A stretch of 64,000 nt of DNA from Nitrospira sp. (GCA_029881435.1 JAOUMR010000005.1:7116-71115); one strand, 5' to 3'. Positions 2,192-57,646 are shown, counted from the stretch's first letter. Notes: generated by a model not told the origin, from the sequence alone. Numbers and translations: made by a program.

Positions 2192-2257
2192 CCTCCCCCC
2201 TTACTTTTTCTAAACGAGGCCCTTGCCTGAATTCATTGTATAATTGCGTGTTAGCAC

Positions 2258-2677
2258 TCACGAATCATTGTCCTTGCGAGGTGGCTGCGGATTCAACGTG
2301 ATGGCGATATTCGGCGTTACAGCAATAGCTTGGTGAACAGTGCAGCCATGCGCCACCTTCAAGAGTCGCTCTCTTTGTTCTGCCGTGATTCGACGAGGTA
2401 AATGGATTCCGATGTCGATGCGACCAACGCGATGGGGGCGCTCGGCCATGGTCCATTCCGCATCGACGCTCAAGCCCTCCCGAGAAATACCGTGCCGCCC
2501 GCAAAATTGTCCGACGAAGTACGCGACACAACTTGCGACGGACCCGACAAAGAGTTCCACCGGGCTCATGCCGGCATCTTGCCCTCCGTCCTCTGCCGGC
2601 TGGTCGGTGATGACTCGATGCTGACCACTCACAATGTCGTAGCGTGTCCCGCCGTGAAAAGTGGCCGTGAGTTTCAT
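2258..2677 (-). CDS. OsmC-family protein
   Basis: 139 aa with an OsmC/Ohr-like pattern by eye (...GMSPVELFVGSVASCVAYF...LLKVAHGCTVHQAI...). Confidence 0.8.
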   Translation of the reverse strand: MKLTATFHGGTRYDIVSGQHRVITDQPAEDGGQDAGMSPVELFVGSVASCVAYFVGQFCGRHGISREGLSVDAEWTMAERPHRVGRIDIGIHLPRRITAEQRERLLKVAHGCTVHQAIAVTPNIAITLNPQPPRKDNDS

Positions 2678-2695
2678 CTCGCGCCTGTGGGCTGC

Positions 2696-3550
2696 TCAGT
2701 ACGGCACATCTGCAGGCTTGCCCCCCTTCGGCCAATCGTGGATCTTGTCCGGAAAATCGGGCCGTGGCTGTGTATTCATATAGGCCGCGACATCAAATGC
2801 CTCATCGTCCGAAACGGTCCACCCCCAACCTCTTGGCATATTGGCTTTGATAAACGACGCCGCCACGCTGACCCTGGCCATGCCCGCTCCGATATTGTAT
2901 GACCGTGGCCCCCACAGCGGTGGTCCCGCCATCGTCCCCTGTCCATCGGACCCATGGCAGAACAGACATTTCTGTTCAAACACCTTCCTGCCGTTGAGAG
3001 GATCAGGCTGACGTGTCGACGTGAGGCGTGGGATTCCTCGCCACGGCACGGCACTACCAGCCGGCATACTCTGTGACAACCATTCAATGTAGGCGACGAT
3101 GGCCGTCAGCTTGACACTATCCGACGGGAGAGACTTGCCATTCATGCTGCGTTCGAAACACTCGTTAATCCGATCCGCGAGGGTCATCTGTCGGCCGGCA
3201 CGCTCACGATATTGCGGGTAGACGACACTGATGCCGACAAACGGAGCCGCATTCGGGTTGACGCCGGCATCCAAATGACAATTAGTGCAGTTGAGCGCAT
3301 TACCGACGTACCGTTTCCCGTATTCTTGCGTATCGACCACCATCTTGTAACCCAGCCGGATTTGCTCTCCCCTGAGGTCGCCGGGAATAGTTTCAGGAGA
3401 AGGGGGGGCAAACAACGTGTTGACCGTTGACTCAGTATTGGAACGACCGACCGAATCCTCGCTCCCTGTCACCCGTGGAGGCGGGACACAACCGATCGTG
3501 ATCAACGCGACACCTGCCAGCACGAAGTTTGCCACCGACCGTGCACCCAT
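2696..3550 (-). CDS. dihaem cytochrome c, TsdA/SoxA-like (putative thiosulfate dehydrogenase family)
   Basis: Two CxxCH motifs (CTNCH, CLFCH). A conserved-looking RINECFERSMNG block lies about 40 residues after haem 1, the position where TsdA/SoxA proteins carry the Cys axial ligand. The likely start is ATG at 3550 (MGARSVANFVLAGVALITIGC, a signal or lipoprotein-like sequence) rather than 3622. Confidence 0.7.
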   Translation of the reverse strand: MGARSVANFVLAGVALITIGCVPPPRVTGSEDSVGRSNTESTVNTLFAPPSPETIPGDLRGEQIRLGYKMVVDTQEYGKRYVGNALNCTNCHLDAGVNPNAAPFVGISVVYPQYRERAGRQMTLADRINECFERSMNGKSLPSDSVKLTAIVAYIEWLSQSMPAGSAVPWRGIPRLTSTRQPDPLNGRKVFEQKCLFCHGSDGQGTMAGPPLWGPRSYNIGAGMARVSVAASFIKANMPRGWGWTVSDDEAFDVAAYMNTQPRPDFPDKIHDWPKGGKPADVPY

Positions 3551-3558
3551 TTCAGACC

Positions 3559-3777
3559 TCACTTCTTCAGGTTCGATGGAGGAGAACAGGTATTGATGCC
3601 GAACAATGTAAACAACGGGCAAAACCCCACCGCCCCGGTGAGTAGTAATATGGCTCCCACTGCCAAGAGCGCCCCGGCAATGGCCGATGACAACCCAGCA
3701 AAGAGACCGATGCTGATCGCCAAAATTCCTGCACCGATGCGTATCGGTCGCTCCGCTCCTCCGACATTACACGTCAT
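3559..3777 (-). CDS. DUF2892 (YgaP C-terminal-like) small membrane protein
   Basis: MTCNVGGAERPIRIGAGILAI...LLTGAVGFCPLFTLFGINTC matches the DUF2892 pattern (2 TM helices, GxCP motif). GGGAGG lies 7 nt upstream of the ATG at 3777. Confidence 0.7.
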   Translation of the reverse strand: MTCNVGGAERPIRIGAGILAISIGLFAGLSSAIAGALLAVGAILLLTGAVGFCPLFTLFGINTCSPPSNLKK

Positions 3778-3865
3778 GATAATCCCTCCCTTGTTCACGA
3801 AGAAAATGGTTCCCGTCTATCCGACACGCTGGTATGAGACACGTCCCGCCAATTGGATTCATCTG

Positions 3866-4255
3866 CTACGGCTGCTGGCTGGACTCAAAACCCAACGTGC
3901 GGACATAGGCTAAGACATCCCAGATTTCTTCATCGGAGAGCGAATGTTTCCACGCACCCATGGCGGTATTTGGTTTGCCTTCATGAATGCGCCGGAACAA
4001 TGTGCCGTCGAGTCGATTGTGAACATCGGGCGAGGTGAGGTCTGCCGGAGGTGGAACGAGTTTGATTCCGAGCGCACCTTTGCCGTCGATGCCATGACAA
4101 CGGATGCAGGTGTTTACGTAGATTTCCCGCCCACTGACTGGATCTCCTCCCTTTGCTGAGCTGGTGAGTTCTTTCACTCCAAGATTGCTGAAACCCAGCG
4201 CTGACATACCAGTCAACAGTGCGCAAAAAGCCAGCATCCGTCCAGTGATAGGCAT
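3866..4255 (-). CDS. monohaem class I cytochrome c, secreted
   Basis: A single CIRCH motif and a C-terminal ...HEGKPNTAMGAWKHSLSDEEIWDVLAYVRTL. The likely start is ATG 4255 (MPITGRMLAFCALLTG, signal peptide) with GAGGTG upstream. Confidence 0.8.
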   Translation of the reverse strand: MPITGRMLAFCALLTGMSALGFSNLGVKELTSSAKGGDPVSGREIYVNTCIRCHGIDGKGALGIKLVPPPADLTSPDVHNRLDGTLFRRIHEGKPNTAMGAWKHSLSDEEIWDVLAYVRTLGFESSQQP

Positions 4256-4681
4256 CTTTTTCACCTCTCTACACTGATATACACTGAACCTTGCGATCAG
4301 CATGCCATTCCCCCAGTAACAGATCAGCACTATTCCCATTGCTGAACAAAGACTTATGACGTTGCTTTAGAATGGATCGGAGAAGCGGATCTTGGACTGG
4401 TGAAGAACGCCACAGAACCCTATCACCCTCTGGCGCAGGACGCTACACAGCTCCACATCCGAGTGCTAGAGCCTCGGCAAGCGTAACTACTAAAACGCCG
4501 AGTGAACTCGTTACCCCCTGCCACGTAGTGCGCCCATCGAGGAAGTCGACTCGACTCCGCTCGGAAAGTGACAATTTCTTTCAACTTTTTCCGAAACCCA
4601 CTACCCTATTCTTTCGGTAAACAGATCGCTCGTAGGAGCTATTTCTCCTTGGCATAGTTTCGGATTTGGCGCCTTATTGAG

Positions 4682-7600
4682 ATGTCGCAACCACCCTCCC
4701 CGGTTATACACAATCTTGCATCACTCTTTCAGTGGCGTTGCCGGAGAAATCCAAATGACCTGGCCTACGCATTCGTCCGTGACAACCTTGTAGTTGAAAG
4801 CCAAGTAACATTTGGCCAGCTTGAACGCAGGGTCTATTCGCTTGCCATCCATCTTGCCCGCGAGGCCCCGTCAGGAACAAGAGCCCTTCTTCTCTACCCA
4901 CAGGGGCTGGATGTCGTCTATGCATTTTGGGCATGCGCCTGTGCCGGTCTCGTTCCGGTTCCTACTCCGACTCCTGATCTCGTCAGGCAGAAACACAGCC
5001 TGCCGAGACTCCGTTCCATCATTGACGATGCCCAGGCATTGCTTGCGCTCACGACCTCAGACATCAAGGCCCAGGCATCAGAGCTGTCGATCGCAAAGGA
5101 GATTAGTCAGATCAAGTGGGTGGCGACAGATCATCCCTACGAGCAGGCCCACTCGGATGAGCTACCACGGTCTACGAACACCGCCCTTGCCTATCTGCAG
5201 TATACGTCCGGGTCGACGGCCACTCCTCGTGGTGTCATGATCAGCCATGGAAACGTAATCTCCCACTGTAGGGCTTTGAGTCTGGTGGGAGAAGTGTCGG
5301 ACAGCAGCCGATCGCTTTGCTGGTTGCCCTATTTCCATGACTATGGGTTACTGCACGGAATCATCGCCCCGTTCTATACCGGTAATCCCGCCTATCTGAT
5401 GTCGCCCGTCACGTTCCTCCGGCGGCCATTACGTTGGCTCGAAGCGGTGGCTCGGTTTGGGATCACCCACAGCGGGGGACCGAATTTTTCCTATGAAGCT
5501 TGCCTCAGAGCTGTGCGGCAACAGGAGGGATGGCAGGCCGACTTGAGCAAGTGGGTGGTCGCCAGTTGCGGAGCCGAACCCATTCATCCCGATACAGTTG
5601 AGCGGTTTATCGACACTTTTGGCCCATATGGCTTCCGGCGAACGACCTTTGCCCCGGGATATGGACTTGCAGAGGCCACGCTATCGGTGACGGTGAAGCG
5701 GGCCGGAACGGAGCCGAGCTTCCTGCATGTTGATGCCGACGCGTTGGCCGACTCGATCGTCAAGGAGTCGCCCCGGTCAGAACGAGGAACGCGAACACTC
5801 GTTGGATGCGGGGTACCCCTCGAAGAGACTCATGTCCGAATTGTGAACCCGACTACTCGACGCGAGTGCCCACCATGCGTAGTCGGAGAGGTGTGGCTGG
5901 CCGGTTCCGGAATCGCCGCCGGATATTGGGAGAAACCAGAAGAAAGCGAAGCCGTCTTTAAGGCCACCCTCGCTGGATCAAACGAGGGTCCCTACTTGCG
6001 GACCGGCGACCTGGGATTCATCCATCGAGGAGAGCTGTTCCTCACCGGACGCCTCAAGGACCTGATCATCGTGCGCGGACGGAACTATTACCCCCATGAT
6101 CTGGAGTGGACGGCCCAGCAAGCGCATTTCGGCTTGCGACGAGGATCTGGAGCGGCCTTCTCGATTGAGGGCAAGACGGGAGAACTGGTGGTGCTGGTTC
6201 ATGAGATCGACAGGCAGGTGTCCGAATCCGACCTGCCGGACGTGATGAACTGCATCCGTCGTGCGTTGGCCGACGAATATGGACTCGAACTCCACAGTAT
6301 GGTGCTGATCAAGTCCGGGACGATCCCAAGAACCTCCAGTGGGAAAATTCAGCGAAGTGCCTGCCGAGCCGCCCTTGAGTCCAGCCAACTCGCCGTCGTC
6401 GCAGCAAGCACATTGGATCTGGCTGACGCTGAACCCGATGAGTTACGAAGTGAGCCCCCGCAAACTACCATCGAGAAGAAGCTGGCCGATATCTGGCAAG
6501 AGGTGCTTGCAGGACCTGCTCCGCATCGCCATGCGAACTTCTTTGCACTCGGAGGGAACTCCCTTCTCGCAGCACAGGTTGTTGCGCGTATCCTCGATGC
6601 CTTCCATGTCGAGTTCCCGCTCAGTGTGCTGTTCGAATTTCCGACATTGTCCACACTGGCCGCCCGCATCGGTGAACCGAACACGAGTCCGGCTGACGCG
6701 GACCAGCCCGAGGACAGGAGTGGGTACGCAAGTGGCGACGGCAGGACGCGGATTCCGGTTGTTCCGCTTCCCTCGGCATTCACAAGGGAAGGCAGGATTC
6801 CGCTCAGCCCCTCGCAGCAGCGACTGCGGTTCTTGGAGCAGGTTCATCCTGGGAGTGCGATCAACCATATTTCCATGGCTGTGCGTATCCGAGGGTCGGT
6901 CAACCCCGATGTGTTGGAGCGCTCGGTTCAGGAAATCATCCGTCGACACGAGATTCTCCGAACCCGTTTTGGATCGGAGAAGGGTGAAGGCTTCGCAGCA
7001 ATATCCCCTGAAGGTTGCTTCACGCTGGCCGAGCATGATTTCAAAACGCTGAGTCGGACCGAACAAGAAATCGAGGTGCGACAGTTCCTTCGAACGGAAG
7101 CCAGTCGGCCATTTGATCTCGGCCAAGGGCCATTGTTTAGAGTTGCGCTACTGGCACTCGATCAAGATCTGCATGTCTTGGGGCTGACGTTCCATCGCCT
7201 CGTCGCGGATGGTTGGTCCCTTCGCCTCTTCTGTAAAGAATTGGCCCTCCTGATGGAGGCCGGTGGGAATGCTCAAGAGGCTCGTCTTTCCACACCGTAC
7301 ATTCAGTATACGAACTACGTGAACTGGCATCGGACCAGGCTTGATCGAGGCCTTCGTGAGGTCGACCGCGAGTACTGGATCAAGCAGTTGCGCGATGTGC
7401 CGCCGCCTGCTGAATTACCTGCCGACCGTCCACGGCCAAGGGTGCGTGCCTTCGAGGGGGCCGCCCATTCTCGGTCTCTTTCTCCTAGTCTAACTAACTT
7501 GCTGAGCCTCTTTTGTCGGCAGCAGAGCGTGACTCGATTCATGGTGTTGTATGCCGTGTTTGTCACATGGCTGCAACGCTACACGCACGAGTCGGATGTC

Positions 7601-10600
7601 GTGACTGGATCGATCGTGTCCGCCCGGCGTCGGAAAGAGCTCGAAGACGTGATGGGGTATTGCGTCAATACGGTGGCGTTGAGGTCCGAACTTTCGGATG
7701 GGCTGACCGTACACGAGCTGTTGGAGCAGATCCGCCGTGTGGTGGTGGAGGCCTATGACCATCAGGACCTCCCATTTGAAGAAGTGATCGAGGCGTTGTC
7801 GCTACAACGAGGGCATCAGCTGTTTCCACTGTTTAATGTGATGATCGTGGGCGAAGACGACCCCCTGTCCACGTTCAGCGTCAGTGATCTTGAAGTTACC
7901 CATCTCCCCTGGGAACCAACCGCGTCCGAGTTCGACCTCGTGTTGATGGTGGTCAACAAGGTGCAGGGGTTGGAATTGGCGGTTCTTTACGATCGCATGC
8001 TTTTTGACGAGTCGACGATCATTCTCATGTTGGGACAGATCGAAATGCTTCTTGAGCAATTCATCGAGAAACCCGATTCCCCTCTTGACACACTCTCGCT
8101 CCTGACGGCTCAGGAACGCGAGCATCTTCTGACGAAATGGAATCGGCCAAGCCTCCCGGTTCCACATCCTTGTGGTATCCATCAACTCATTGAGGCACAA
8201 GTTAAGCGCACTCCCCATGCACCCGCTGTCACCTGTGGGGACAAATCCATCAGCTATCAAGAGTTGAACGAACGAGCGAATCGGGTCGCACGCGCCCTCA
8301 AGAAGTTAGGGGTTGATGCAGACCACCCAGTAGGTCTTTGTATCGAGCGCTCTGTAGACGCTCTCGTAGGCCTGTTGGGCATTCTCAAAGCTGGGGGAGG
8401 TTATGTCCCTCTGGATCCATCCTTTCCCGCCCATCGCCTCCAACTCATACTCGACGACGCGAATGTCTCCATCGTGGTGACACAGGAGCGGCTGCATAGC
8501 CATCTACAGGGCTACGCAGGCCAGATATGCGACGTGGAGACACTCTGTCATCCACCAACAAGTGGAAATGAGGAAAACCTCGCAATTTCCACTTCTCCTG
8601 ATCAGCTAGCCTATATCATCTACACATCAGGCTCAATCGGACGTCCCAAAGGCGTGGCAGTGACACACCGAAATGTGGTGACCTCGCTTCAGGCCAGACT
8701 TCACTATTATTCGGAATCCGTGGACCAGTTCTTGCTGACCTTCTCTCTGGCCTTCGATGGGTCCGTCACGGGTATTTTTTGGACATTATCGCAGGGAGGA
8801 GAATTAGTCATCCCATCGGAGATCGCTCATCGCGATCCCACCGAACTTGCTTCGCTCATCGCACTGCACCACATCTCGCACGTCGTGTGGGTGCCTTCTT
8901 TGTACCATGCCGTGCTTGGCGAGGCGTTGGGCACTCAGCTGGATTCACTTCGCATCGTCATTACGGCCGGAGAGAGCCTGCCTCTTGAACTCGTGCGACG
9001 GCACTACCAGCTCTTGCCTCATACCACGCTGTACAACGAATATGGACCGGCGGAAACCACGGGCTGGTGCAGCGTGTATCAAACAACTCGCGAGGAAGCC
9101 GGGGCCCGAGTCCCGATCGGCAAACCCATCAACCATATGCAGCTCTATGTGCTGGATGCGAAGCTTCAGCCGATGCCCATAGGCGTTCCCGGTGAGCTGT
9201 ATGTCTCAGGGGACTGCTTGGCCCGTGGCTATGTCAACCAACCGCAGTTGACCCAAAAGCGGTTTCTTGCGAACCCCCACGTGGTCGGTACCAGACTGTA
9301 TCGAACCGGTGACCTGGCTCGGTATCGTGCCGACGGCAATGTGGAGTTTCTTGGGTGGATGGACCAGCAGATCAAACTGCGTGGCTATCGGATCGAACCG
9401 GGAGAAATCGAATCTGTGTTGAGTAACTTCCCGGGTGTGCATCACACGGCGGTGCTGCTTCGGCAGGATAAGGGAGACCAGCACCGGTTGGTCGGCTATA
9501 TCGTCGGCGAGTCGTCGCTCAAAGGAAGGCTTGAACAGGTCCGCCGTTATCTCGCAACTCGATTACCGCATTATATGGTGCCCTCCGTCATTTTGTGCCT
9601 CGATAGCATGCCGCTTAATGCCACCGGAAAGGTGAATTGCAGCGCCCTTCCCGCTCCGGACGACACCACCACTCGGGCGGTGTCCAGGGTTGCTCCCAGA
9701 AATCAGGTTGAAGAATCCCTGGCTGAGTTGTGGAAATCCGTGCTTCAAGTCCCGGAGGTGGGCATCCACGACAACTTCTTTGAGCAGGGAGGCCACTCGC
9801 TCTTGGCGACTCAGCTCGTCTCTCGAATACGTGAGCTATTTGAGGTTGATATCTCACTTCCGGCGCTGTTTGCGCGACCGACGATTGCGGCATTGGCAGA
9901 AGAAGTGACGCGATTGCGCCAGGAGGAGAAGGCATCCATGATGCCGTCGATCGTTCCGGTCCCCAGAGATCAGCCACTCCCCCTTTCCTATTCTCAGCAA
10001 CGCATGTGGTTGATGCATCAGCTGGCTCCTCAGAGCACGGCGTATAACATGCCGTTTGCGTCGAGACAGATGGGACGACTCAACAAAGTGGCTCTCCGGA
10101 ATACGATCGATGCCATCTGTCGCCGCCATGAGGCATTTCGGACGACGTTCATGATGAGTGGTGACGGACCGGTCCAAATGATCCACCCATTTCGCCCTCC
10201 TCATTGGGTCGAAACGGATCTTCAGCAATTGCCACGCGAACAGCGACGGCAGCAGGCGGCTCGGCTTGTAGAGCAGGAAGCGAACCAGCCGTTTGATCTC
10301 GAGCAAGGTCCTCTCGCACGATTCCTCTTGATCGAGATCGAGCCCGAAGATCACGTGTTGGTGCTCACGATGCACCATATAATTGGTGACCAGTGGTCGT
10401 TCGGGATCATTGGCCGCGAGTTCGCGTTCTTCTACAACGCGTTTAGCCGCGGAGAGATTCCTTCGCCAAAGCCGATCCCCATTCAGTATGCCGACTACGC
10501 GGTGTGGCAGCGGCGCTGTCTGACCGATGACTGGCTCAGCATACAATCGGATTATTGGCAGAAGAAGCTGGCCGGACTTTCCAAGCTTTCGTTGCCGACC

Positions 10601-13600
10601 GATCACCCACGGCCTGCGTTGCAGACATTTAATGGCTCCCATCGCATGCTGGAGTTGCCCTCGTCGTTGATCGAACGACTGAAGCAGTTCAGTGCAGACC
10701 ACAATGCGACGGTATTCATGACCCTGCTAGCCTGTTTCCAGATACTCTTGAGTCGCTATTCCAGCCAGACCGACCTTGCCGTCGGCTCTCCCATCGCCAA
10801 TCGGACTCAATCCGCAGTCGAGGCGATCATCGGCTCGTTTGTCAACACACTCGTCTTGCGTACAGATCTCTCCGGCAATCCAACGTTCGTCGAGTTGATG
10901 GCACGGGTACGTGAAACAGCGCTAGAGGCCTACGCCCATCAAGACTTCCCATTCGACAAGTTGGTCGAAACGATGCACTCCTCCCGCGACAATAGCTCTG
11001 CCCCGCTGGTGCAGGTTCTTTTCAATGTACCGAACGCTCCCATCGGGGAGATCAACGTTCAGGGGTTGAGCTGGGTGCCGTTCGAGGCGGAGACACACGC
11101 CGCACAATTCGACCTAAGTTTAACGATTGAAACCGAAATCTCCCGAAAGGCCTATCTGTCTTTCAATACCGACCTCTTTGAGGCACACACGGCTGAACGG
11201 ATGTTGCAACAGTACAAGACCCTGCTCCAGAGCGCATTGGCTAATCCTCAAAACAAACTGTCCGAGCTTCCGACAGTGACAGCATTCGAGCGCAGACAGA
11301 TGTTACAGGATTGGAACCGCACGCAAAGAGAGTATCCACAGTCTGCATGTTTTCCTCAGCTATTTGAAGCGCAGGTTGATCGGATGCCTGACGCGGTTGC
11401 GTTGTCGATGGGGCAGAAGACCCTTCGGTACAGTCAGCTCAATACCCAGGCTAATCAGCTAGCACGCTATCTCCAAACACAGGGTGCTCGTCCAGGGGCG
11501 GCGGTGGGGATCGGTCTTGAACGATCCGTGGAGATGGTCATTGCATTGTTGGCCGTGCTTAAAACCGGTGCGGCCTACGTGCCACTCGACCCTGATTATC
11601 CACGGGATCGACTTCGGTTCATGTCGGAGAATGCCTCACTCATCGCCGTGCTCACATCCGCCTCGCTGTCCGATCGGTTTGATGCCCAAGTCTGCCGCAC
11701 ACTGTGTCTCGATCAAGAGCAGGAACGGATCGCACAGGAGCCCGACCACAATCTTCCACCTACCGCCACGCCTCAGGATTTGGCGTACATCCTGTATACA
11801 TCGGGGTCGACGGGACAGCCGAAGGGGGTGGAAATTCCGCACAGAGCGCTGGTGAACTTCTTATGGTCGATACGACAAGAACCAGGATGTTCCGCTCAAG
11901 ATGTCATGCTCTCTGTCACAACCTTGTCGTTTGATATCGCCGGGTTAGAACTGTACGTGCCACTGCTGGTCGGGGCTCGCGTCGAAATCGCCACTCGTGC
12001 TGTTGCCATGGATGGACGACAACTGCGAGCTCTCTGTGAAGCCGTTCAGCCGACGATCATGCAAGCGACCCCCGCCACATGGAGAATGTTGGTTGAGGCC
12101 GGGTGGCAGGGCAGTACTAGACTGACGATACTCTGCGGAGGTGAGCCTCTTCCCCCTGATCTTGCGGTGACATTGTTAGATCGGAGTGAAACCCTATGGA
12201 ATATGTATGGCCCGACCGAAACCACGATTTGGTCTACGATCGAGAGAATCGAACGGAATGATCAGGACATCACCATTGGCAGACCCATTGCCAATACTGA
12301 CGTGTACATCCTGGATCAATTTCTCCAGCCAGTTCCGGTCGGTGTTGCCGGTGAACTCTATATCGGAGGCCTTGGATTGGCACGAGGCTATCGGGGGCGA
12401 CCTGAGTTAACCGAAGAGCGGTTCATTCCTCATCCATTTTCTGCAGAGCCTCTCGCGAGACTGTATCGAACAGGAGACTTGGCGCGGTATCGACCGGATG
12501 GACGCATTGTGCATCTCGGACGTTTGGATCACCAAGTCAAGATAAGAGGGTACCGGATTGAATTGGGCGAGATCGAAACCGCCTTGAGCCGCCATCAAGC
12601 CGTCCGTCAGGCAGTGGTCATGGCACGAGAAGATCAACACGGTGTCAAACAGCTAGTGGCCTATGTGGTCTGCCAGGATGGCCCTGCGCCAAACCAACCG
12701 GAGCTTCGCTCGTTTCTGAGGTCAGAAATTCCCGACTATATGGTTCCTTCACTCTTCGTGTTTCTGGATGCCATGCCATTGACGGCCAATAATAAGGTCG
12801 ACCGGAACGCCTTACCGGCTCCTGTCTCCACACTCACGAGCGATGCGGCTTTTGTTGCACCGTCCGATCGCATGGACATACAAATGGCGGTTTTGTGGCA
12901 ACAGGTGTTTGGGGTCGACCAGGTCGGGATTCACGACAACTTTTTCGATCTCGGCGGCCACTCACTCAAAGCAGCTCACCTATTCTATCTCATTGAACAG
13001 GTTTACGGCAGACATCTTCCGCTATCGACATTGTTTCAAGCTCCAACCATTGCCACGCTCACGTCGGTTCTTACACAGGAACAGTGGGCACTCCCTTGGC
13101 AATCCCTGGTGGTAATGCAGCCCAACGGGTCGGGCATCCCGGTGTTTTTGGTGCCAGGAGTAGGTGGCGATGTGTTGTGGTTCGCCAATCTCGCTCGGCT
13201 CCTCGGCCGTGCGAACCCGGTGTACGGCTTACAAGCCCGAGGATTCGATGGAAAAGAGGACCCGTTTCTTTCAGTCCCTGAAATGGCAAAACACTACGTT
13301 ACAGAGATCCGTAGATGCCTTCCACAAGGCCCCTATGTTCTCGTTGGTGCATGTACTGGTGGGCTGGTCGCCTATGAGATGGCACAACAATTAGGCGAAC
13401 AGAACACCGTTGCCATTTTGATCATCTTGAATAGCTGGCATCCGACTTCGTATCACACGCGTCATAGTGATCTCTCCCTCAGATTTGCACTTCCGCTGAG
13501 AATCCTTTCGATGACCACGAGCACCCTTGACGAACTCCACCGTACACCTATGAAAGATTGGTTGCTGATCATGCACCGTAAGTATGAGAAGGTTCGGTCG

Positions 13601-13933
13601 GCTTTCCGAAAACCGACCGATGATGAACTGAGACAGCGTCAACTCAAACGCATTCAACAGGCGATGTTCCGGTCAGCCGCCTCCTACACTCTGCATACCT
13701 ACCCCGGCCGCATTCTTAACATCGTGGCTTCACAGCGGATTGCGGACCACGATACCAGATATGGTTGGGGCAAGCTGGCAGGCGATGGAAGCCTGACCAT
13801 AGAGGTTGCGGTTCGTCGTACAGCAGACCTTCTTGCTTCACCGCATGTGGAGAGCGTATCTAGCCATATTCGGCGCTTTATCGACGACGAGTCTCAGGAT
13901 TCATCTGTCCGACCTGTAAATAGAGCTGCGTGA
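4682..13933 (+). CDS. non-ribosomal peptide synthetase with domain order FAAL-T-C-A-T-C-A-T-TE (3083 aa)
   Basis: Motifs read directly from the translation:
- FAAL/adenylate motifs: [35 protein letters not shown].
- Three carrier-domain serines: GGNSL, GGHSL, GGHSL.
- Two condensation domains: [10 protein letters not shown] and [10 protein letters not shown].
- Two adenylation domains: [29 protein letters not shown] and [29 protein letters not shown].
- A C-terminal alpha/beta-hydrolase TE: [12 protein letters not shown]...LVGACTGG. Confidence 0.95.
   Translation: [3083 protein letters not shown]
4700..6400 (+). other. NRPS domain: fatty acyl-AMP ligase-like loading domain (approximate bounds)
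   Basis: An N-terminal adenylate-forming domain with FadD32/FAAL-like motifs. It is directly followed by a carrier domain and a C domain. Confidence 0.75.
6455..6670 (+). other. NRPS domain: carrier (ACP/T0); Ser codon 6560-6562 in GGNSL
   Basis: LADIWQEVL...[15 protein letters not shown]. Confidence 0.8.
6790..8110 (+). other. NRPS domain: condensation C1 (starter-type position); active-site motif reads H-R-L-V-A-D-G at 7193-7213
   Basis: [13 protein letters not shown]... C1 motif; [10 protein letters not shown] in place of HHxxxDG. Confidence 0.75.
8170..9680 (+). other. NRPS domain: adenylation A1 (substrate not recognised)
   Basis: The A3, A5, A7, A8 and A10 core motifs are all present. 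Confidence 0.8.
9700..9905 (+). other. NRPS domain: thiolation T1; Ser codon 9797-9799
   Basis: [34 protein letters not shown]. Confidence 0.8.
9965..11290 (+). other. NRPS domain: condensation C2 (LCL-like); HHIIGDQ at 10373-10393
   Basis: [24 protein letters not shown] and [10 protein letters not shown]. Confidence 0.8.
11330..12830 (+). other. NRPS domain: adenylation A2 (glycine-like specificity code by hand alignment)
   Basis: [34 protein letters not shown]. The hand-extracted code is D-I-L-Q-L-G-M-I-W-K. Confidence 0.7.
12860..13065 (+). other. NRPS domain: thiolation T2; Ser codon 12962-12964
   Basis: [31 protein letters not shown]. Confidence 0.8.
13105..13900 (+). other. NRPS domain: thioesterase-like alpha/beta hydrolase with GxCxG (Cys codon 13352-13354)
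   Basis: [22 protein letters not shown]...[12 protein letters not shown]...[22 protein letters not shown]...LIILNSW. Confidence 0.75.
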
Positions 13934-13991
13934 TCTTCTCCATATGCCTTGTTCGATCGATTGATACACTCTCGGAATCAAGGATGCAATT

Positions 13992-14756
13992 GTGCTGATT
14001 TCATTCCACTCGATTGAGCGTGCCACCTGTGATGACTGGTTGCATTCCATCGACCTTGAACCAAATACCGTTCATATCTGGGGCATCACGCTCGACGGAT
14101 CCTCATACTGTCTGGCGCGATGTAGGGAGTGGTTGGATGATCTGGAGCGGGAACGTGCCACTCGCTTTATTCGAGAAAGAGACCGCAATCGCTACGTGCT
14201 GGCTCACGGAGGCCTCAGAGCAGTGCTCAGTCAATATCTGGGTATCGGACCTGGTTCGGTACGCTTCGATCGTACCGAATCAGGCAAGCCCCTGTTGGCA
14301 AAGGAATTACGAGATCGATCGACCATCACGTTCAATTTGTCTCATGCCCATGGCCGCGCGCTCGTGGCGGTCTCACGAGCACAAGAAGTCGGAATCGATC
14401 TTGAACGTGTTCGTTCAGATGTCCCGGTTGAGAATCTATCCAGGCGTTTTTTTTCTCAATCAGAACACACGGCGATCATGCAATTAGCTCAAAAGCAGCG
14501 AGCAACCATTTTCTTCCGCTACTGGGTTGCGAAAGAGGCGGTGTTGAAGGCGCAAGGTATCGGTCTCAGGGGATTGACTGGGTGCGAGATTATACTGGGG
14601 ACGGATGGAGTTGGAAAAGACGTTCGAGTCCGGGTCGATTCCCGGCTCCTAGATCCAGTGAGGGTTCGGCTTCTCTCTTGCGACCCAGAGTGGGAAGCAG
14701 CGGTGGCCGCCAAAAATTTGGGCCAAGTGAGGCAGTGCGGCCTAGACCCACAGTAA
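13992..14756 (+). CDS. 4'-phosphopantetheinyl transferase, Sfp type
   Basis: 254 aa with a GTG start. Sfp-type motifs are GKPLL, FNLSHAHGRALVAVS, VGIDLERV and FRYWVAKEAVLKAQG. It lies 58 nt downstream of the NRPS stop on the same strand. Confidence 0.9.
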   Translation: MLISFHSIERATCDDWLHSIDLEPNTVHIWGITLDGSSYCLARCREWLDDLERERATRFIRERDRNRYVLAHGGLRAVLSQYLGIGPGSVRFDRTESGKPLLAKELRDRSTITFNLSHAHGRALVAVSRAQEVGIDLERVRSDVPVENLSRRFFSQSEHTAIMQLAQKQRATIFFRYWVAKEAVLKAQGIGLRGLTGCEIILGTDGVGKDVRVRVDSRLLDPVRVRLLSCDPEWEAAVAAKNLGQVRQCGLDPQ

Positions 14757-14776
14757 AGGGTAGCTCGTCTACAAGG

Positions 14777-15211
14777 CTAGCGAATGACCGGCTCGAGTGT
14801 GACTGTGGCTTTCATCGAATTGGATATCAGGCAATTCCGCTCAGCCTTTTCAATCAACTCCTTGGCCTGAACCACATCATCCCCGGACTTCATTGTGATC
14901 GAAGGCCTGATCGTAATAGTGGTGAATTGAAATTTGCCCTCTACTAGCTCCAGCCGACCCTCCGCCGTGCTTTCATAGCTGGAGAAGGCGAGTCCGGCTC
15001 GCTCCGCCACGGCCAGAAACGTGGTCATCAAGCAGACGTTCGCGGACGCTACAAAGAGGTCTTCGGGAGACCAAATCCCCTCATGTCCTTTAAACTCGGG
15101 AGGGGTGGCTACTTGCACATCTGGTTTCCCTTCGCAGGAGATGACTCCCTTGCGCTGTTCTGTCCATTTCACTGTGGTTTGATACATATACACTTTGCTC
15201 TTCTGTTCCAT
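14777..15211 (-). CDS. OsmC/Ohr-family peroxiredoxin-like protein
   Basis: 144 aa. The two Cys sit in the typical OsmC context (SPEDLFVASANVCLMTTF and AERNCLISNS). AGGAGGGGGG lies upstream of the ATG. Confidence 0.85.
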   Translation of the reverse strand: MEQKSKVYMYQTTVKWTEQRKGVISCEGKPDVQVATPPEFKGHEGIWSPEDLFVASANVCLMTTFLAVAERAGLAFSSYESTAEGRLELVEGKFQFTTITIRPSITMKSGDDVVQAKELIEKAERNCLISNSMKATVTLEPVIR

Positions 15212-15251
15212 CCCCCCTCCTAAGTTTCGGGTATCCGCTCACCGCTCATTG

Positions 15252-15440
15252 CTATGGTTTAATATAGGCCCACCCTTGTTCTTGTCGCTCCATGAGTCGA
15301 ACCATTGCCGGTACCGCTTCATCCACCTCGCTGATCACATCTTCTCTCGTCGCCTTCATCGTATCGGAGCAAGCCGCATGGTTCAGCCCGTAGGTGCGTT
15401 TCAACTCAGTCAGTTCGTCAGCAAATGTTGTTGAGGGCAC
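15252..15440 (-). CDS. small hypothetical protein (62 aa if GTG at 15440 is used)
   Basis: Only the C-terminal third of ORF 15252..15581 looks protein-like (VPSTTFADELTELKRTYGLNHAACSDTMKATREDVISEVDEAVPAMVRLMERQEQGWAYIKP). GAGAAGG lies 9 nt upstream of the GTG. No family recognised. Confidence 0.3.
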   Translation of the reverse strand: MPSTTFADELTELKRTYGLNHAACSDTMKATREDVISEVDEAVPAMVRLMERQEQGWAYIKP

Positions 15441-15636: not shown

Positions 15637-16158
15637 TTATCGGACTATCTGTGTCGCAGCCCAGACAAGAAACACCCCGTACACCGAGCCGAAAAACCAG
15701 GGAAAGCTGACTGCTCTATGGGCCCACCATCGACGGTGTTGGCGAAAGGCCCAGTTCGGCAAAAACACCGGTGGCTCGTTCCGTGGATCTTGAATCGGCT
15801 GTCTCGTTTCATGAAGCTGATAGAGGCTTGTGACCAGCTGCTGCCGATCCCAGCCTGGAGATTGCTCGATTCCCCGCAACCGCCACTCCCACAAGGCATT
15901 CTGACCTGACAATCGTCCAAGCACGATTGCCATCTGAAGACACATGAGCACGCCAAAGGCACAGAGCAGGACAATCATGCCGGTGAGGGACAAGGGCAGC
16001 AATTCCCGTGACACAATCAGACCGATCACCGCCACGAAAATGGAGTTGGCCGTGAGATAGTCGGACAGCATCGAATGATAGTCCCGAACCCCGGAGGTCC
16101 AGAGCATCAGCAGATGCTCATAATCCGAATCGAGATCGGAGCAATCCGACGCAGCCAT
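15637..16158 (-). CDS. hypothetical integral membrane protein
   Basis: The likely start is MAASDCSDLD (16158). There are two central TM helices plus a C-terminal TM helix. No family recognised. It lies immediately downstream of the P-type ATPase. Confidence 0.5.
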   Translation of the reverse strand: MAASDCSDLDSDYEHLLMLWTSGVRDYHSMLSDYLTANSIFVAVIGLIVSRELLPLSLTGMIVLLCAFGVLMCLQMAIVLGRLSGQNALWEWRLRGIEQSPGWDRQQLVTSLYQLHETRQPIQDPRNEPPVFLPNWAFRQHRRWWAHRAVSFPWFFGSVYGVFLVWAATQIVR

Positions 16159-16247
16159 CAGGGCCTCCCGTCCGTCAAGTCCTGCTGAACCCGACCACCG
16201 GCTGCATGTGTGGCGGTGCCTCGCCTCGCGCAATCACCGATGTCCAT

Positions 16248-19442: not shown

Positions 19443-20081
19443 TTATGAGCGATCGCACCCCGTCGAATGCTGTACGCATTGCCGAAGCCACGAAACGATC
19501 TGATCAAGCATGCTAGTGACCGCTCGATTGGCGGCTAGGACCCCTCCATAGGCGTTCTCGCTCGGAGCATTCTCCACTGCCTCGAACGCTCGGGCTCCGA
19601 GAATCGTTGATTCTTTCAAGTCCACGAGCTGCAATCGAGCCGTCACTCTGACTCGACTGGGCTGTTGGAGAAATTCTTGCTGCAAAAGAACTCCGTACGT
19701 GTCAAGGCGATAGTCCCCACTGACTGCGCTCGGCAAGGAAATCACGGTCCGCCATGTCCCACTCTGATTGAGCACCTGGACCATCAGGGGGGGGAGCATG
19801 CGCACCGGGCTGTCAGCCCACTGATTCACAGCAAAATATTCGAGTTCGTACGGACGTTTGACGTACACCATGCGCTGCGTTTCAAAGCCCGGCTCCGCTT
19901 GAGGTGGACTCACGAGCAACACTGGACCGTCCGTCTCGACAGGACGCTCTTCACTCTGCAAGCCATCAAGGCTCAAGTGATACGTATGGATTTCCGGAGA
20001 ATCCGTTCGGGTCGATAGACAACCGGTTGTCGTCATAACCAACACAGCGCACAGGACATGGATAAGTTGATACTTCTTCAT
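19443..20081 (-). CDS. ABC-type transport auxiliary lipoprotein (DUF330/PqiC-like)
   Basis: The likely start is MKKYQLIHVLCAVLVMTTTGC (lipobox). It sits directly after an MlaD-like gene, as is usual for this family. Confidence 0.65.
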   Translation of the reverse strand: MKKYQLIHVLCAVLVMTTTGCLSTRTDSPEIHTYHLSLDGLQSEERPVETDGPVLLVSPPQAEPGFETQRMVYVKRPYELEYFAVNQWADSPVRMLPPLMVQVLNQSGTWRTVISLPSAVSGDYRLDTYGVLLQQEFLQQPSRVRVTARLQLVDLKESTILGARAFEAVENAPSENAYGGVLAANRAVTSMLDQIVSWLRQCVQHSTGCDRS

Positions 20082-20100
20082 GGCATGATATTTCAGGACA

Positions 20101-21063: not shown

Positions 21064-21109
21064 TCAGTTCCCCTTCAGTTGCTCGTCCTTGTCCTGCTGA
21101 ATAGGTATT

Positions 21110-21919: not shown

Positions 21920-21953
21920 CAGAGGTTACCTTTCACACAGGTTGCACAACATG

Positions 21954-26352: not shown

Positions 26353-27058
26353 TTACTGGACCAGCTTCTTCAGGAGGCTGGCCAGGTCTTCTGCATGTTC
26401 TTCCTCTTGTGCCAGGATCCCTTCCAAGACTTTACGAGTCGTGGGATCATCTGTGCTAACATAGGCAACCATTTCGCGATAGCTGTCGATTGCGATCCGT
26501 TCGGCAACCAGATCTTCCGTGATCATCTCCACCAATGATTCTCCTTCGATATATTCTGAATGGCTTCGGCTCAGCATCCCTTCAGGAGAGAGCTTTGGCT
26601 CCCCCCCCAAGTTGGACGATGCGTTCGGCCAATTGATCAGCATGGGTCTGTTCCTCAATGACATGCTGGAGAAACTCGGCCTTCACGCCAAGAGAGTTGA
26701 TCCTGCTGGCCATGAAGTAATGGCGTTTGTAGCGGAGGATGCAGACTATTTCCGTGGCCAGGGCTTCATTCAGCAGCCTGATCACCGTCTCCACGTTGGC
26801 CTTGGAGCCCGCTGTCATGGCGCCGTCTTCAATCCCTTGCCGGGCCTGGGCCCGGAGCGACTTTACATCGGACAGACCAATGGCTTCTTTGATGATTCCT
26901 TTCTGTCGGGGAGCGCGAGACGCCGTTGTTCCAGATTGTGCCGGGATCGTTGTCGTTGCTTTCACCGTGTCCTCCCCCCGGGGAGTGTCCTCGTTTGTAT
27001 TATCTCGATCACGAATCGCCCAAGGCTTTCCGGTTATGCTCGGACGGATTCCCCCCAA
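26353..27058 (-). pseudogene. ferritin-like/bacterioferritin-family gene split by a +1 frameshift in a G8 (C8 on +) run
   Basis: ORF 26582..27058 ends ...HADQLAERIVQLGGGAKALS*. ORF 26353..26664 continues in another frame with ...LGGEPKLSPEGMLSRSHSEYIEGESLVEMITEDLVAERIAIDSYREM...EEEHAEDLASLL. Removing one C from 26601-26608 joins them into one ferritin-like protein. Confidence 0.75.
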
Positions 27059-27290
27059 GCCCGCTCGTACAGCTGCAGCCGCTTCTCCACTGACCTCCAG
27101 TCGATGTTCGCAAAGAATGCCTCAATATGTCATAGGTGCCGAAACTGTCTTCTGCAGCTTTCACAAAAGCAGAGCCGTGATCGGGATTCCTGGTTCCGCC
27201 GTGAGTCAAGTTCTCAAAGTAATATTCATGCAAGACCAGCCCGTTGTATTCAAAACCCAGCCGTCTGGTCAGCTCGGAATACGCCGCCAT
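27034..27290 (-). pseudogene. Fe/Mn superoxide-dismutase-like gene remnant (internal deletion plus frameshift)
   Basis: The frame of ORF 27009..27290 gives ...YNGLVLHEYYFENLTHGG...AAEDSFGTYD. This resembles the SOD segment around the second metal His and the FGS(F/Y)D motif. A different frame from 27129 to 27034 reads HIEAFFANIDWRSVEKRLQLYERA, like the SOD C-terminus (YxxAFWNVVNWxxV). The N-terminal HxxxHH helix and the central GSGW...DVWEHAYY part are absent. Confidence 0.45.
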
Positions 27291-27574
27291 TTCCTCCCGA
27301 TCGATCCGTCAAAAGACCACGTCATTTCTTTCTATGCTTCCACTATCGCCACGATAACCCGGCTTCTCCCTGCTGACATCAGAGCACGCGTGGAAATGCC
27401 ACCAGGTCCTGCTTCTCTTCTGCCGTCAACTGAAGCCCTACCGCCGCAAGATTGACGAACTCTACTATGACAAGCAGCATTGCAGGAGTCTGGTCATAAT
27501 TGCTCAGTACGCAAGACCCGAAGAGCGTATCGTTAACCGTAAGCTTGTTTTACATTTATCCCAAGGAGGCTCCA

Positions 27575-32400: not shown

Positions 32401-32487
32401 ACTGACCCACTTGCGTACTTTCTCTGGATCCGGCCGGAATCCCCTCTCCTGGGCTGAGGCTCCTCAGCATGGAAGAACGGGTTCAGC

Positions 32488-32712
32488 TCATGAAAGGTAC
32501 ATTCCGCATCCCAACGGCATGGCATTGTCCAAGACGATCAGGTCGTGTTTAAGGCGCTGCCCACGCCCAGTCACCCGCGCCACCCAGCCCATATTCCGGA
32601 TCAGAGGTATGTCGAGCTTGAGGGCGACGACGCCACATCCTGCCGCCAGCAGCAAGAACGCGGCCACTTCGTAGAAGACGCTGTTGAAGACAGGCATGAA
32701 ATTGTCCTTCAT
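32488..32712 (-). CDS. short membrane ORF, possibly the N-terminal relic of a CPA2/Kef-type antiporter
   Basis: MPVFNSVFYEVAAFLLLAAGCGVVALKLDIPLI resembles the first TM helix and the ...RLxxPxLVGY start of CPA2 proteins. The similarity is lost after about 35 residues. This is a weak call. Confidence 0.25.
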   Translation of the reverse strand: MKDNFMPVFNSVFYEVAAFLLLAAGCGVVALKLDIPLIRNMGWVARVTGRGQRLKHDLIVLDNAMPLGCGMYLS

Positions 32713-36407: not shown

Positions 36408-36438
36408 CGTATCCCTCGAGTCACGACATGAGCACCTA

Positions 36439-56098: not shown

Positions 56099-56371
56099 GC
56101 ATTTCTGGGACGCAACACTAGGTGTTGGTGATCAAAGAAGTTGAACTTCGAAATCGTTGCGATGTAGATCTTCCGCAACTTGCCGGAAACCCGTACAGGG
56201 GGTCGAATCATCAATCGCCCCAATATTCCGTCAGGCGCTTCGCGTCTTTATGATGAGGCCGCGTTATGTTATGTTCTCGGCCATGAAGGCTGTATTCACG
56301 ATGCCCGATGCTCTGTACCTGGAGGCGAGACGCACTGCCATAGGGCAGTCACAAGTGGGAAGGAAGTGCGT

Positions 56372-57646
56372 ATGAGGCGGTCACTTGGAGTGCTGGGTTT
56401 TGTCATATGCTTGAACATGACCGCAAACTCCGTGGCGGCGCTGGCAGCCGACGCTGGCAAGCAGGACTTCGCCAAAGGAGAGAGTCTTTTAAAGCACAAA
56501 CAATATGCCGAAGCGCGCGCGACGTTGGAGGCAGGGCTCATCAAGAATTCGTCTAATGTGCAGGCTCATTTCAACCTGGCTGAGGCCTGTCGAGGATTAG
56601 CAGCCTGGGACTGCGCGGAAGAACATTACGAGACCGCGTTACATCTGGATGCGAAATCCAGGATCAGGGGGACGAGGGAAGCACGGTTAAGCAAAATGAA
56701 GGTGTGGCAGTCGCTGGAGGAAGTGACAGCGTGGCGCTTGCTGGAGAAAGCGAAGAGTCTGATTGCCGGTGGGCAGGCTCAGCCAGACCAGATGAAGCAG
56801 GCGGAGGAGGCCCTGGACGGCGCTAATGAGCTGGGCCTCAATAATGAGCAACAGGCCGTCTATCAACAGTTACAAGCGAAATTCCCTGGGCGACGTTCGA
56901 CTAGCTCGCCGGATAGTCTGAAACCAGATGGATCAGCAGGAGAGGCGTTCCAGACCGATCCCCGCGACGTACCGATGGCGCTGGTGCCGGCAGGGGAATT
57001 CACGATGGGGAGTACGCTGAAAGCTGACGAAAAGCCTGTGCATCACGTCTACCTTGACGCTTTCTATATGGACAAGTACCACGTGACGGTGGGGCAGTAT
57101 GCCAAGTATCTGGAGGCGACGGGCACGGAGGCACCGCCGGAATGGGAGATCATGAACCAACCCCGCCATCAGAAACGTCCGGTCGTGAACGTCAGCTGGT
57201 CGGATGCAGCCACGTACTGCAAATGGGCCGGCAAGCGTCTGCCGACCGAAGCCGAGTGGGAAAAGGCGGCGCGGGGGACGGATGGCCGCCTCTACCCCTG
57301 GGGCAACGAGGCCCCCACCAGACTCCACGCGAATTTCGGCAAGAAGGAATGGGCGAACCATATGGCGTTGGTTCCGGTGGGGATGTTCGAAATGGGCAAG
57401 AGCCCCTACGGTATCTATGACATGGCCGGCAATGCCTGGGAATGGGTCAACGACTGGTATGACCATGACTATTACAGGAAGAGCCCAACGAAGAATCCTC
57501 AAGGACCGACAACGGGTAAGTCTAAAGTAGTGCGGGGCGGAAACTGGCTCTATATTCAGGAGTTTCTGGGATCGTCCTTCCGTTACAATGCCGAACCGTC
57601 TCGTAGGCACCTCGGCTACGGATTTCGTTGCGCAAAGACTCCGTAG
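56372..57646 (+). CDS. secreted TPR-like + formylglycine-generating-enzyme (SUMF1/FGE-sulfatase) domain protein
   Basis: The likely start is ATG 56372 (MRRSLGVLGFVICLNMTANSVAALA, signal peptide). The N-terminal region is helical-repeat. The C-terminal FGE-type domain reads MALVPAGEFTMGS, HHVYLDAFYMDKYHVT, RPVVNVSWSDAATYCKWAGKRLPTEAEWEKAARG, GIYDMAGNAWEWVNDWY, VVRGGNW and FRCA. Confidence 0.85.
   Translation: MRRSLGVLGFVICLNMTANSVAALAADAGKQDFAKGESLLKHKQYAEARATLEAGLIKNSSNVQAHFNLAEACRGLAAWDCAEEHYETALHLDAKSRIRGTREARLSKMKVWQSLEEVTAWRLLEKAKSLIAGGQAQPDQMKQAEEALDGANELGLNNEQQAVYQQLQAKFPGRRSTSSPDSLKPDGSAGEAFQTDPRDVPMALVPAGEFTMGSTLKADEKPVHHVYLDAFYMDKYHVTVGQYAKYLEATGTEAPPEWEIMNQPRHQKRPVVNVSWSDAATYCKWAGKRLPTEAEWEKAARGTDGRLYPWGNEAPTRLHANFGKKEWANHMALVPVGMFEMGKSPYGIYDMAGNAWEWVNDWYDHDYYRKSPTKNPQGPTTGKSKVVRGGNWLYIQEFLGSSFRYNAEPSRRHLGYGFRCAKTP

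Follow-up and report, generated by a model that had tools for sequence, protein, structure and literature searches.

A predicted lipo-initiated peptide synthetase cassette conserved in uncultured Nitrospira

A stretch of 64,000 nucleotides from Nitrospira sp. (GCA_029881435.1, JAOUMR010000005.1:7116-71115), here called the window, carries on its plus strand a gene for a nonribosomal peptide synthetase (NRPS) followed by a gene for an Sfp-type 4'-phosphopantetheinyl transferase (PPTase). Our results make it fairly probable that the two genes form a working lipo-initiated NRPS cassette in a Nitrospira lineage that has not been cultured, and that it operates in the way proposed below. The predicted chain is probably fatty acyl-His(-like)-Gly, as read from the adenylation domain sequences. 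The architecture of the synthetase, its active-site residues, their conservation, the purifying selection on the gene and the operon structure in the relatives can all be observed directly.

In soils, freshwaters and wastewater plants, Nitrospira dominate nitrite oxidation and also provide the complete ammonia oxidisers, yet they are hard to grow. To our knowledge, almost nothing is known of their small-molecule chemistry. In the literature on Nitrospira and NRPSs we found only a genome-mining survey and no product; that survey, done with antiSMASH, reports that Nitrospira genomes contain NRPS clusters but assigns them no product (PMC9765116). New in the present work are a substrate prediction, conservation at the genus level, the derived nature of the two-gene state, a first condensation domain with the motif HRxxxDG, and a cysteine-type subfamily of terminal thioesterase domains in which the catalytic histidine varies.

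Gene pair and domain organisation

According to the open reading frame (ORF) listing of the window, the NRPS gene is an ORF of 9.25 kb with an ATG start (4682..13933), which encodes 3083 aa, is intact and has zero frameshifts. Pfam finds in it three AMP-binding, two AMP-binding_C, two Condensation, three PP-binding and one Thioesterase domain, the last at residues 2820-2932. The domain order is FAAL-T-C-A-T-C-A-T-TE, where FAAL stands for fatty acyl-AMP ligase, T for carrier, C for condensation, A for adenylation and TE for thioesterase domain (residue ranges are given in Table 1). After a gap of 58 nt (13934..13991) the second ORF of the listing begins with GTG (13992..14756, 254 aa); this is the Sfp-type PPTase, and a Shine-Dalgarno sequence, AAGGA, lies 6 nt ahead of its GTG.

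A sequence-only reading of the window had described one intact ORF of 3083 codons with a PPTase 58 nt downstream, which the ORF listing bears out, and the same domain order, with which the profile hidden Markov models of Pfam and NCBIfam agree. The minimal context that it claimed for the pair, with MbtH, tailoring enzyme, regulator and exporter all absent beside it, holds for this window: no tailoring enzyme or regulator adjoins the two genes, and an MbtH motif was not found anywhere in the 64 kb. Annotation of the neighbours confirms c-type cytochromes, two OsmC genes and a P-type ATPase around the pair. It is also correct that the pair makes up two of only four plus-strand genes, the other plausible ones being 26519..27376 and 56180..57646.

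Table 1. Features of the NRPS-PPTase locus in the window (positions counted from the first letter of the window; aa, residues of the NRPS unless stated otherwise)
Feature	Position	Strand	Basis
Conserved block ahead of the NRPS gene, probably its promoter and 5' leader	4560..4681	+	Alignment of seven Nitrospira loci; putative function
NRPS gene, FAAL-T-C-A-T-C-A-T-TE, 3083 aa	4682..13933	+	ORF listing, Pfam, NCBIfam, orthologue search, dN/dS
FAAL domain, aa 12-570	4715..6391	+	NCBIfam FAAL families, PF23024, PDB matches
Carrier T1, aa 596-665, Ser627 in LGGNSL	6467..6676	+	Pfam PP-binding
Condensation C1, aa 706-1140, active site H838-R839-LVA-D843-G844	6797..8101	+	Pfam Condensation; Txo1/Txo2 alignment
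Adenylation A1, aa 1165-1660, predicted His or His-like	8174..9661	+	Pocket code, A1-core relatives
Carrier T2, aa 1678-1745, Ser1706	9713..9916	+	Pfam, orthologue alignment
Condensation C2, aa 1766-2208, HHIIGDQ, LCL-like	9977..11305	+	Pfam, orthologue alignment, PDB ranking
Adenylation A2, aa 2228-2712, DILQLGMIWK, predicted Gly	11363..12817	+	Pocket code, PMC12283262
Carrier T3, aa 2733-2800, Ser2761	12878..13081	+	Pfam, orthologue alignment
Thioesterase-fold release domain, aa 2818-3083, Cys2891/Glu2899/Tyr3002/Asp3024-Thr-Arg3026/Trp3029/His3055	13133..13933	+	Alignments, AF2 model, subfamily profile
Sfp-type 4'-phosphopantetheinyl transferase, 254 aa, GTG start	13992..14756	+	Pfam, NCBIfam, PDB match

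Distribution and selection

Orthologues were sought as near-full-length matches among 5.8 billion proteins clustered at 90% identity. About 86 orthologue clusters are 66-81% identical to the window protein, after which identity falls abruptly to 42% or less. Every named orthologue comes from a metagenome-assembled genome of uncultured Nitrospira, Nitrospiraceae or Nitrospirota, and five of the contigs that bear an orthologue measure 4.1-4.7 Mb. A genome scan of GTDB recovered nine Nitrospira loci; it required exact 8-mers and thus undercounts the distribution. In pairwise comparisons with six orthologues, dN/dS comes to 0.15-0.17 over the full gene, with values of 0.15-0.20 in C1 and 0.10-0.28 in the TE, and every NRPS domain is under purifying selection. 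Residue counts given below refer to an alignment of 73 orthologues.

The sequence-only reading had called the system an orphan that could not be mapped to a described product. We likewise found no characterised product or cluster that matches the cassette, nor a close full-length match to a characterised cluster; the best identity outside Nitrospira is at most 42%, and the score against the PvdL model is 2287 bits with a cut-off of 4090. The word orphan is appropriate as far as characterised full-length relatives are concerned, and it fails in another sense, as the gene is a conserved orthologue across many uncultured Nitrospira.

Operon structure in relatives

The locus was compared in nine GTDB species representatives (L001-L009), in two more Nitrospira loci, L022 (a 4.14-Mb contig with window-like flanks) and L023 (the most divergent orthologue), and in two out-groups (L024 and L025). 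The PPTase gene comes after the NRPS gene in eight of L001-L009 and in 10 of the 11 other Nitrospira loci, either directly or past an ATP-binding cassette (ABC) transporter gene. This linkage spans two unrelated flanking contexts: the flanks differ in L023, L002, L003 and L005, which have MatE and DUF2779 upstream and a deaminase and an ECF sigma factor downstream. The PPTase is the only constant partner of the NRPS.

An ABC gene stands between the NRPS and the PPTase genes in five of 12 Nitrospira loci. In L004, L006 and L008 it directly follows the NRPS gene and encodes 553-555 aa, and L022 and L023 have the order NRPS-ABC-PPTase. The L004 protein passes the NCBIfam model TIGR01194, 'cyclic peptide export ABC transporter', with 452 bits (cut-off 286); this is the PvdE/SyrD family. 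Trimodular out-group relatives (P0089, P0097, P0115 and P0119; 38-42% identity) share the Cys-TE, a last C domain with HHxxxDQ and a Gly-type last A domain, and the out-group operons are NRPS-ABC-PPTase in L025 and NRPS-ABC in L024. We read these gene orders to mean that the ancestral unit is a three-gene NRPS-ABC exporter-PPTase operon and the two-gene state a derived one, the window and six other Nitrospira loci having lost the exporter. The self-contained two-gene cluster of the sequence-only reading is thus a fair description of this genome and not of the ancestral unit.

Two candidate extensions of the system were rejected. A functional link to the OsmC, cytochrome c and Mla neighbours was dropped, as they are syntenic in one of the two genomic contexts only. 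The P-type cation ATPase (929 aa) and the '8xMP' membrane protein gene (15637-19037, minus strand), which lie between OsmC_b and a 116-aa cytochrome c, are an insertion specific to this genome: the syntenic loci L004, L006, L007, L009 and L022 are without both.

Two side observations concern the surroundings of related loci. In the alternative context, the NRPS gene of L003 is immediately preceded by an integrase-core (rve_3) fragment (9305-9814), which hints that the cassette has moved within Nitrospiraceae. Both out-group loci adjoin exopolysaccharide genes (GT2, Wzx-type flippase, Wza-type exporter, Bac_transf and polysaccharide deacetylase).

FAAL, carrier domains and PPTase

The family matches identify the N-terminal adenylating domain as a fatty acyl-AMP ligase and not as an acyl-CoA ligase or an amino-acid A domain. 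NCBIfam PRK05850 matches residues 12-564 with 558 bits, and the best NCBIfam matches for residues 12-570 are FAAL families (PRK05850, FadD21/28/32), each under its own cut-off. PF23024 is present according to Pfam, and the best PDB matches are exclusively FAALs (7r7f, 3kxw, FadD23/32/28, 3pbk). The lipo-initiation logic proposed from sequence alone agrees with these matches. The serines that accept phosphopantetheine are invariant in all 73 orthologues (GGNS627L, GGHS1706L and GGHS2761L).

The dedicated Sfp-type PPTase is likewise upheld. Pfam AASDHPPT_N and ACPS are both over their cut-offs, the motifs VGIDLE and WVAKEAVLKA are present, and the best PDB match is B. subtilis Sfp (1qr0), with an alignment that spans residues 43-240 of the PPTase. 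It is not HetI itself, as the NCBIfam HetI equivalog gives 177 bits with a cut-off of 370.

Condensation domains

The C1 motif reads HRLVADG, and when C1 is aligned to Txo1/Txo2, R839 falls on the second His of HHxxxDG, which is normally the catalytic one. This position is Arg in 65 of the orthologues and His in the remaining eight, which are among the more divergent; five of the eight also have variant A1 codes. The fold and the other motifs of the Condensation domains are present. C1 scores highest with Txo (226 bits), then TycC6 (158), PvdL C1 (129) and the starter (Cs) domains of SrfA-A (123), RzmA (68) and CDA (38). By these scores C1 resembles an elongation-type domain rather than a classic Cs domain. 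The arginine is best regarded as a tolerated or functional variant and not as decay, because the state is maintained under selection.

C2 has the motif HHIIGDQ, in which both His are kept and Gly is replaced by Gln; the motif is invariant across the orthologues. Its scores with Txo (304-314 bits), fuscachelin (251) and TycC6 (234) are far above those with TycB1 (DCL, 85) and SrfA-A (starter, 110), so that C2 looks like an LCL-like elongation domain. This class fits an assembly line without an epimerisation (E) domain. Given Cs and LCL as the choices in the sequence-only reading, C2 falls with LCL, and C1 comes out as elongation-like.

Adenylation domains and predicted substrates

Both A domains carry Asp235, Lys517 and a readable pocket, and both Lys517 are invariant. 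The Stachelhaus positions were taken via PheA numbering, which is consistent with the GrsA code DAWTIAAICK in PMC12283262. The A2 pocket is DILQLGMIWK in 72 of the 73 orthologues, and the same string is named a Gly code (PMC12283262). We predict on this basis that A2 loads Gly.

The A1 pocket is DGTVIAEVWK in 49 orthologues and DGTVVAEVWK in 14, whereas the window itself has the rare DGTVIAEGWK. The A1 code strings have no match in the literature searched. Nearest among tabulated codes are those for His, DSALIAEVWK (10 domains) and DSPLIAEVWK, and for Trp, DAAIIGE[IV]WK and DAGLVGEVWK. The A1 family code shares seven of ten residues with DSALIAEVWK, including the whole IAEVWK block. In a protein search with the 220-aa A1 core, whose matches are only fragments of at most 384 aa that show codes and have no product names, the Nitrospira fragments are followed by about 40 relatives at 44-59% identity, and almost all of these bear DSALIAEVW or DSVLIAEVW. 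Not until identity drops under about 43% are there pockets for Ser, Val, Thr, Asx and Gly. Since A1 is nested beside His-type A domains and shares seven pocket residues with them, the best call is His or an analogue. We give histidine or a close analogue a somewhat better than even chance of being the A1 substrate, with Trp or Tyr as the alternatives.

Release domain

The nucleophile elbow of the terminal domain is GACTGG and not the GxSxG of Ser-His-Asp type I TEs. Cys2891 aligns with the catalytic Ser (GWSLGS) of Skyxy-TE 7crn, and Cys occupies this position in all 73 orthologues. An AlphaFold2 (AF2) model built on 23 orthologues (pLDDT 84, pTM 0.77) shows an alpha/beta hydrolase capped by a helical lid, in which Cys2891 follows strand 82-87 and sits on the nucleophile elbow. 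Foldseek matches of the model are the type I TEs Skyxy, AB3403, GbnD6, oocydin branching TE, Vlm2, NocB, Pks13 and FAS. The C-terminal half matched no solved TE by sequence in a profile search.

The acid position after beta6 (position I) is Asp in 38 orthologues, Asn in 28 and Glu in seven, while Asp3024-Thr-Arg after beta7 is invariant in the alignment, its place being taken from the topology of the AF2 model. The canonical His after beta8 is present in the window (H3055) and in 67 of the 73 orthologues. A profile search of 1.84 billion representative proteins returned 3909 matches at E<=1e-30. The best 150 proteins contain 165 TE-like domains, 116 of them with Cys, and 78 form a tight subfamily that stands at the C-terminus of one- to four-module NRPSs; the members looked up are all unnamed environmental proteins. 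The subfamily motif is GxCxGG...E...Y...DxR...W, with invariant Cys, Glu(+8), Tyr3002, Asp3024, Arg3026 and Trp3029. At the canonical position, which is flanked by conserved Pro and Val, 48 of the 78 members have His. By its sequence the domain belongs to a large uncharacterised Cys-type subfamily in which the canonical His is not conserved.

Proposed mechanism and alternative explanations

We infer the substrates, the order of events, the release chemistry and the export as follows. The Sfp-type PPTase would turn the three carrier domains holo, and the FAAL would adenylate a free fatty acid and load it onto T1. C1, as an elongation-type domain with HRxxxDG, would couple the acyl group to the residue that A1 loads, for which histidine or something closely analogous is most probable, and C2 would append the glycine loaded by A2. 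Acyl-His-Gly would then pass to Cys2891 by thiol-thioester exchange and be released, the default being hydrolysis to a free lipodipeptide acid. An N-acylated dipeptide, as suggested from the sequence alone, is still the best reading of the architecture. In the ancestral arrangement the PvdE/SyrD-type ABC transporter encoded between the NRPS and the PPTase genes would export the product; as the exporter gene is lost in this genome, export here would go via another system or not take place. An imidazole-headed amphiphile of this kind suggests a metal-binding or surface/envelope function.

Several points weigh against this proposal. The link between the genes and a product is predicted from sequence. 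The His-type neighbours of the A1 core are themselves uncharacterised fragments, the A1 family pocket departs from the His code at S236G, A239T and L278V, and the window protein has in addition the rare G330. By pocket alone the Trp codes DAAIIGE[IV]WK are about as close, and so is the Tyr code, which we take to be DGTITAEVAK. Most orthologues have a C1 without the second His of HHxxxDG, and loss of this His lowers activity in some C domains. In the TE, the position-I acid is Asn in the window (N2917), and the canonical His is missing in six of the 73 orthologues, while some 38% of the wider subfamily lacks it; because of these two features simple hydrolytic release is not assured. A cyclic-peptide-type (TIGR01194) ABC exporter is absent from the entire window, and there is no exporter, receptor or regulator in it to hint at a role.

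The same features have to be weighed under other explanations. The terminal Cys domain may not be a hydrolase and may pass the acyl-dipeptide thioester to an acceptor (an amine, a sugar or exopolysaccharide, a lipid or an intramolecular group), giving a conjugate or a cyclised product. This is a real possibility because the TE subfamily, in which the Cys, Glu(+8), Tyr, Asp-x-Arg and Trp are invariant, does not conserve the catalytic His. It is also favoured by the C-terminal half that matches no solved TE, by transferase-type TEs among the fold neighbours (Pks13 and the oocydin branching TE) and by two out-group operons amid genes for polysaccharide synthesis and export. The characterised Cys-TEs, those of ObiF and SulM, release their products non-hydrolytically via a thioester and have an Asp after beta7 (PMC11298585). 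However, none of the Nitrospira loci has a linked gene that would supply an acceptor, the two polysaccharide contexts could be a coincidence (n=2), and with His3055 in the window and in most orthologues an ordinary Cys-His mechanism with water is possible. Beta-lactone or beta-lactam chemistry was rejected, since a terminal Gly offers no nucleophile on its side chain and the domain is not similar to ObiF or SulM. All in all, we hold acceptor transfer to be the less likely outcome, though one to be taken seriously. A different aromatic residue on A1, which would make the product fatty acyl-Trp-Gly or fatty acyl-Tyr-Gly, is rather unlikely. Both Trp codes, DAAIIGE[IV]WK and DAGLVGEVWK, share E322, V/I330 and W331 with A1; the deepest-branching Nitrospira orthologues carry DGIAIGEVWK or DV[TS]AIGE[VI]WK and lean to the Trp codes, and the assumed Tyr code shares D-G-T at 235/236/239. 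On the other side, the sequence neighbours of the A1 core bear the His code and not Trp or Tyr codes, and A301 and the full IAEVWK block match His.

The product might also be a metallophore (for instance for Cu, Zn, Ni or Fe) made in the manner of PvdL/PvdE, with an acylated precursor at the membrane, ABC export and possible deacylation outside. Metals can be bound by an imidazole head group, and the His or beta-OH-His domains of known lipopeptide siderophores have this code too. In addition, a PvdL-type model is the NCBIfam entry that best matches the whole protein, and the ABC partner is in the PvdE/SyrD family. Still, none of the loci examined has a linked gene for a TonB-dependent receptor, uptake system, hydroxylase, PvdQ-like acylase or metal-responsive regulator, one imidazole with a carboxylate is a weak chelator, and the exporter is dispensable in seven of 12 loci; we consider a metallophore distinctly unlikely. 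It is very improbable that the NRPS gene is a decaying or inactive relic. R839 in place of the second His of C1, N2917 where other orthologues have Asp or Glu, and the absence of the ABC gene from the window could be taken as signs of decay, but the ORF is intact, the three carrier Ser, both Lys517 and the TE Cys are invariant, dN/dS is about 0.16 in every domain including C1 and TE, and HR is the majority state in 65 independent orthologues and hence a maintained feature.

Comparison with known systems

The most similar logic is that of PvdL/PvdE of Pseudomonas, where an N-terminal FAAL-T is fused to C-A-T modules. NCBIfam PRK05691 is the best whole-protein match (residues 11-2804), although the score is far under the cut-off of this model, and the partner transporter of the relatives is in the TIGR01194 family of PvdE/SyrD. 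PvdL has four modules and an E domain, is not known to carry a TE, feeds further NRPSs and makes a chromophore precursor. The Nitrospira synthetase, by contrast, has just two modules and ends in a Cys-TE, and neither a further NRPS nor genes for periplasmic maturation lie downstream. In mycobacterial Rv0096-0101, a FAAL and a carrier reportedly act together with a bimodular NRPS in making kupyaphore, a small diisonitrile lipopeptide said to act in metal homeostasis; its FAAL and acyl carrier protein (ACP) are reportedly separate proteins, its release reductive and its isonitrile-forming tailoring enzymes essential. A FAAL with a bimodular NRPS is common to both systems, whereas fusion, TE and lack of tailoring are unique to the Nitrospira side. 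With the Cs lipo-initiation of surfactin and CDA our system shares the N-acylation of the first amino acid with a fatty acyl thioester by a C domain; here, however, C1 is elongation-like, has HRxxxDG and takes the acyl group from a carrier loaded in cis by the FAAL.

The corallorazine synthetase Crz1/Crz2 of myxobacteria is also a bimodular NRPS for an N-acylated dipeptide with Gly in second place (PMC11342130). It has a separate ligase and ACP that feed a classic Cs, a dehydrating CmodAA C2, an N-methyltransferase in A2 and reductive release by a TD domain (PMC11342130), and none of these (separate ligase and ACP, Cs, CmodAA, N-methyltransferase, TD) was found in the Nitrospira system.

In the Cys-TEs of ObiF1 and SulM the Asp is located after beta7 ('position II'), while in most NRPS TEs it is after beta6 (PMC11298585). 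The Nitrospira domain resembles them in the Cys of a GxCxG elbow and in the invariant Asp at position II, as judged from the topology of the AF2 model. It differs in several respects: a profile search detects no sequence relationship, the top 50 fold matches include neither protein, the chain ends in Gly, which has no beta-OH or beta-NH2, and the canonical His is variable in the subfamily. SulM has a Gln-Cys-Asn motif and a basic pocket, whereas the Nitrospira sequence is A-C-T.

A bolder proposal would be that the terminal domain is a new NRPS off-loading class with a thioesterase fold that uses an invariant Cys together with Glu, Tyr, Asp-x-Arg and Trp, does not need the canonical His and releases Gly-terminated lipopeptides non-hydrolytically by acceptor transfer or an unusual cyclisation. 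The product derived from acyl-His-Gly might then serve environmental Nitrospira in the envelope, in biofilms or in metal handling, as a factor that defines the lineage. We put this forward tentatively and think it doubtful.

Upstream region and other genes in the window

When seven Nitrospira loci are aligned, the intergenic region ahead of the NRPS gene has invariant columns only in the block 4560..4681 (…AATTTCTTTCAA…CTAC…). The locus L001 is uninformative for promoter comparison, as it has a run of N upstream of the NRPS gene (~7480-7700). A scan of 4200-15300 for promoters and terminators gave counts no higher than the shuffled expectation, and a consensus promoter is not above chance. Rfam returned zero families at the gathering threshold in the whole window. 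An inverted repeat in the 5' leader (~4624-4641) was dropped as weak, since it folds in the window, L001 and L004 and not in L006-L009. Across 4611-4645 of the leader (plus strand), the inverted repeat GCTC-GTAG-GAGC shows an apparent compensatory change relative to GTTG-ATAG-CGGC of L004.

Other parts of the window are of separate interest. On the minus strand, 779-4339 contains three c-type cytochrome genes, one of them SoxA/TsdA-like, and an OsmC gene, and the corresponding block of L022 adds DsrE and PPK2; these genes may form a Nitrospira module related to thiosulfate or sulfur. An Mla-like lipid ABC system (19443-23120, minus strand) consists of an ABC_trans_aux lipoprotein, MlaD, an ATPase and MlaE with an N-terminal STAS fusion. 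It adjoins the NRPS locus in one Nitrospira context only, and the STAS-MlaE fusion is unusual. At 31732-40254 (minus strand) phosphoketolase (XFP) and acetate kinase lie by a GH15 fragment, a phosphorylase-like protein and an isoamylase, which looks like a glycogen-to-acetyl-phosphate route in a chemolithoautotroph. The plus-strand gene 56180-57646 encodes a TPR-FGE-sulfatase (formylglycine-generating-enzyme-like) protein and stands beside a CopD-like gene and cytochrome c'.

Conclusions

One studied member of the Cys-type TE subfamily would annotate many NRPSs, as the profile finds thousands of representatives at E<=1e-30. For Nitrospira itself, a cassette that purifying selection has kept in dozens of uncultured species offers a concrete target, and with two genes in 10 kb it is compact enough for heterologous expression. 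Its product could bear on aggregation, on metal supply or on the interactions of Nitrospira with partner nitrifiers.

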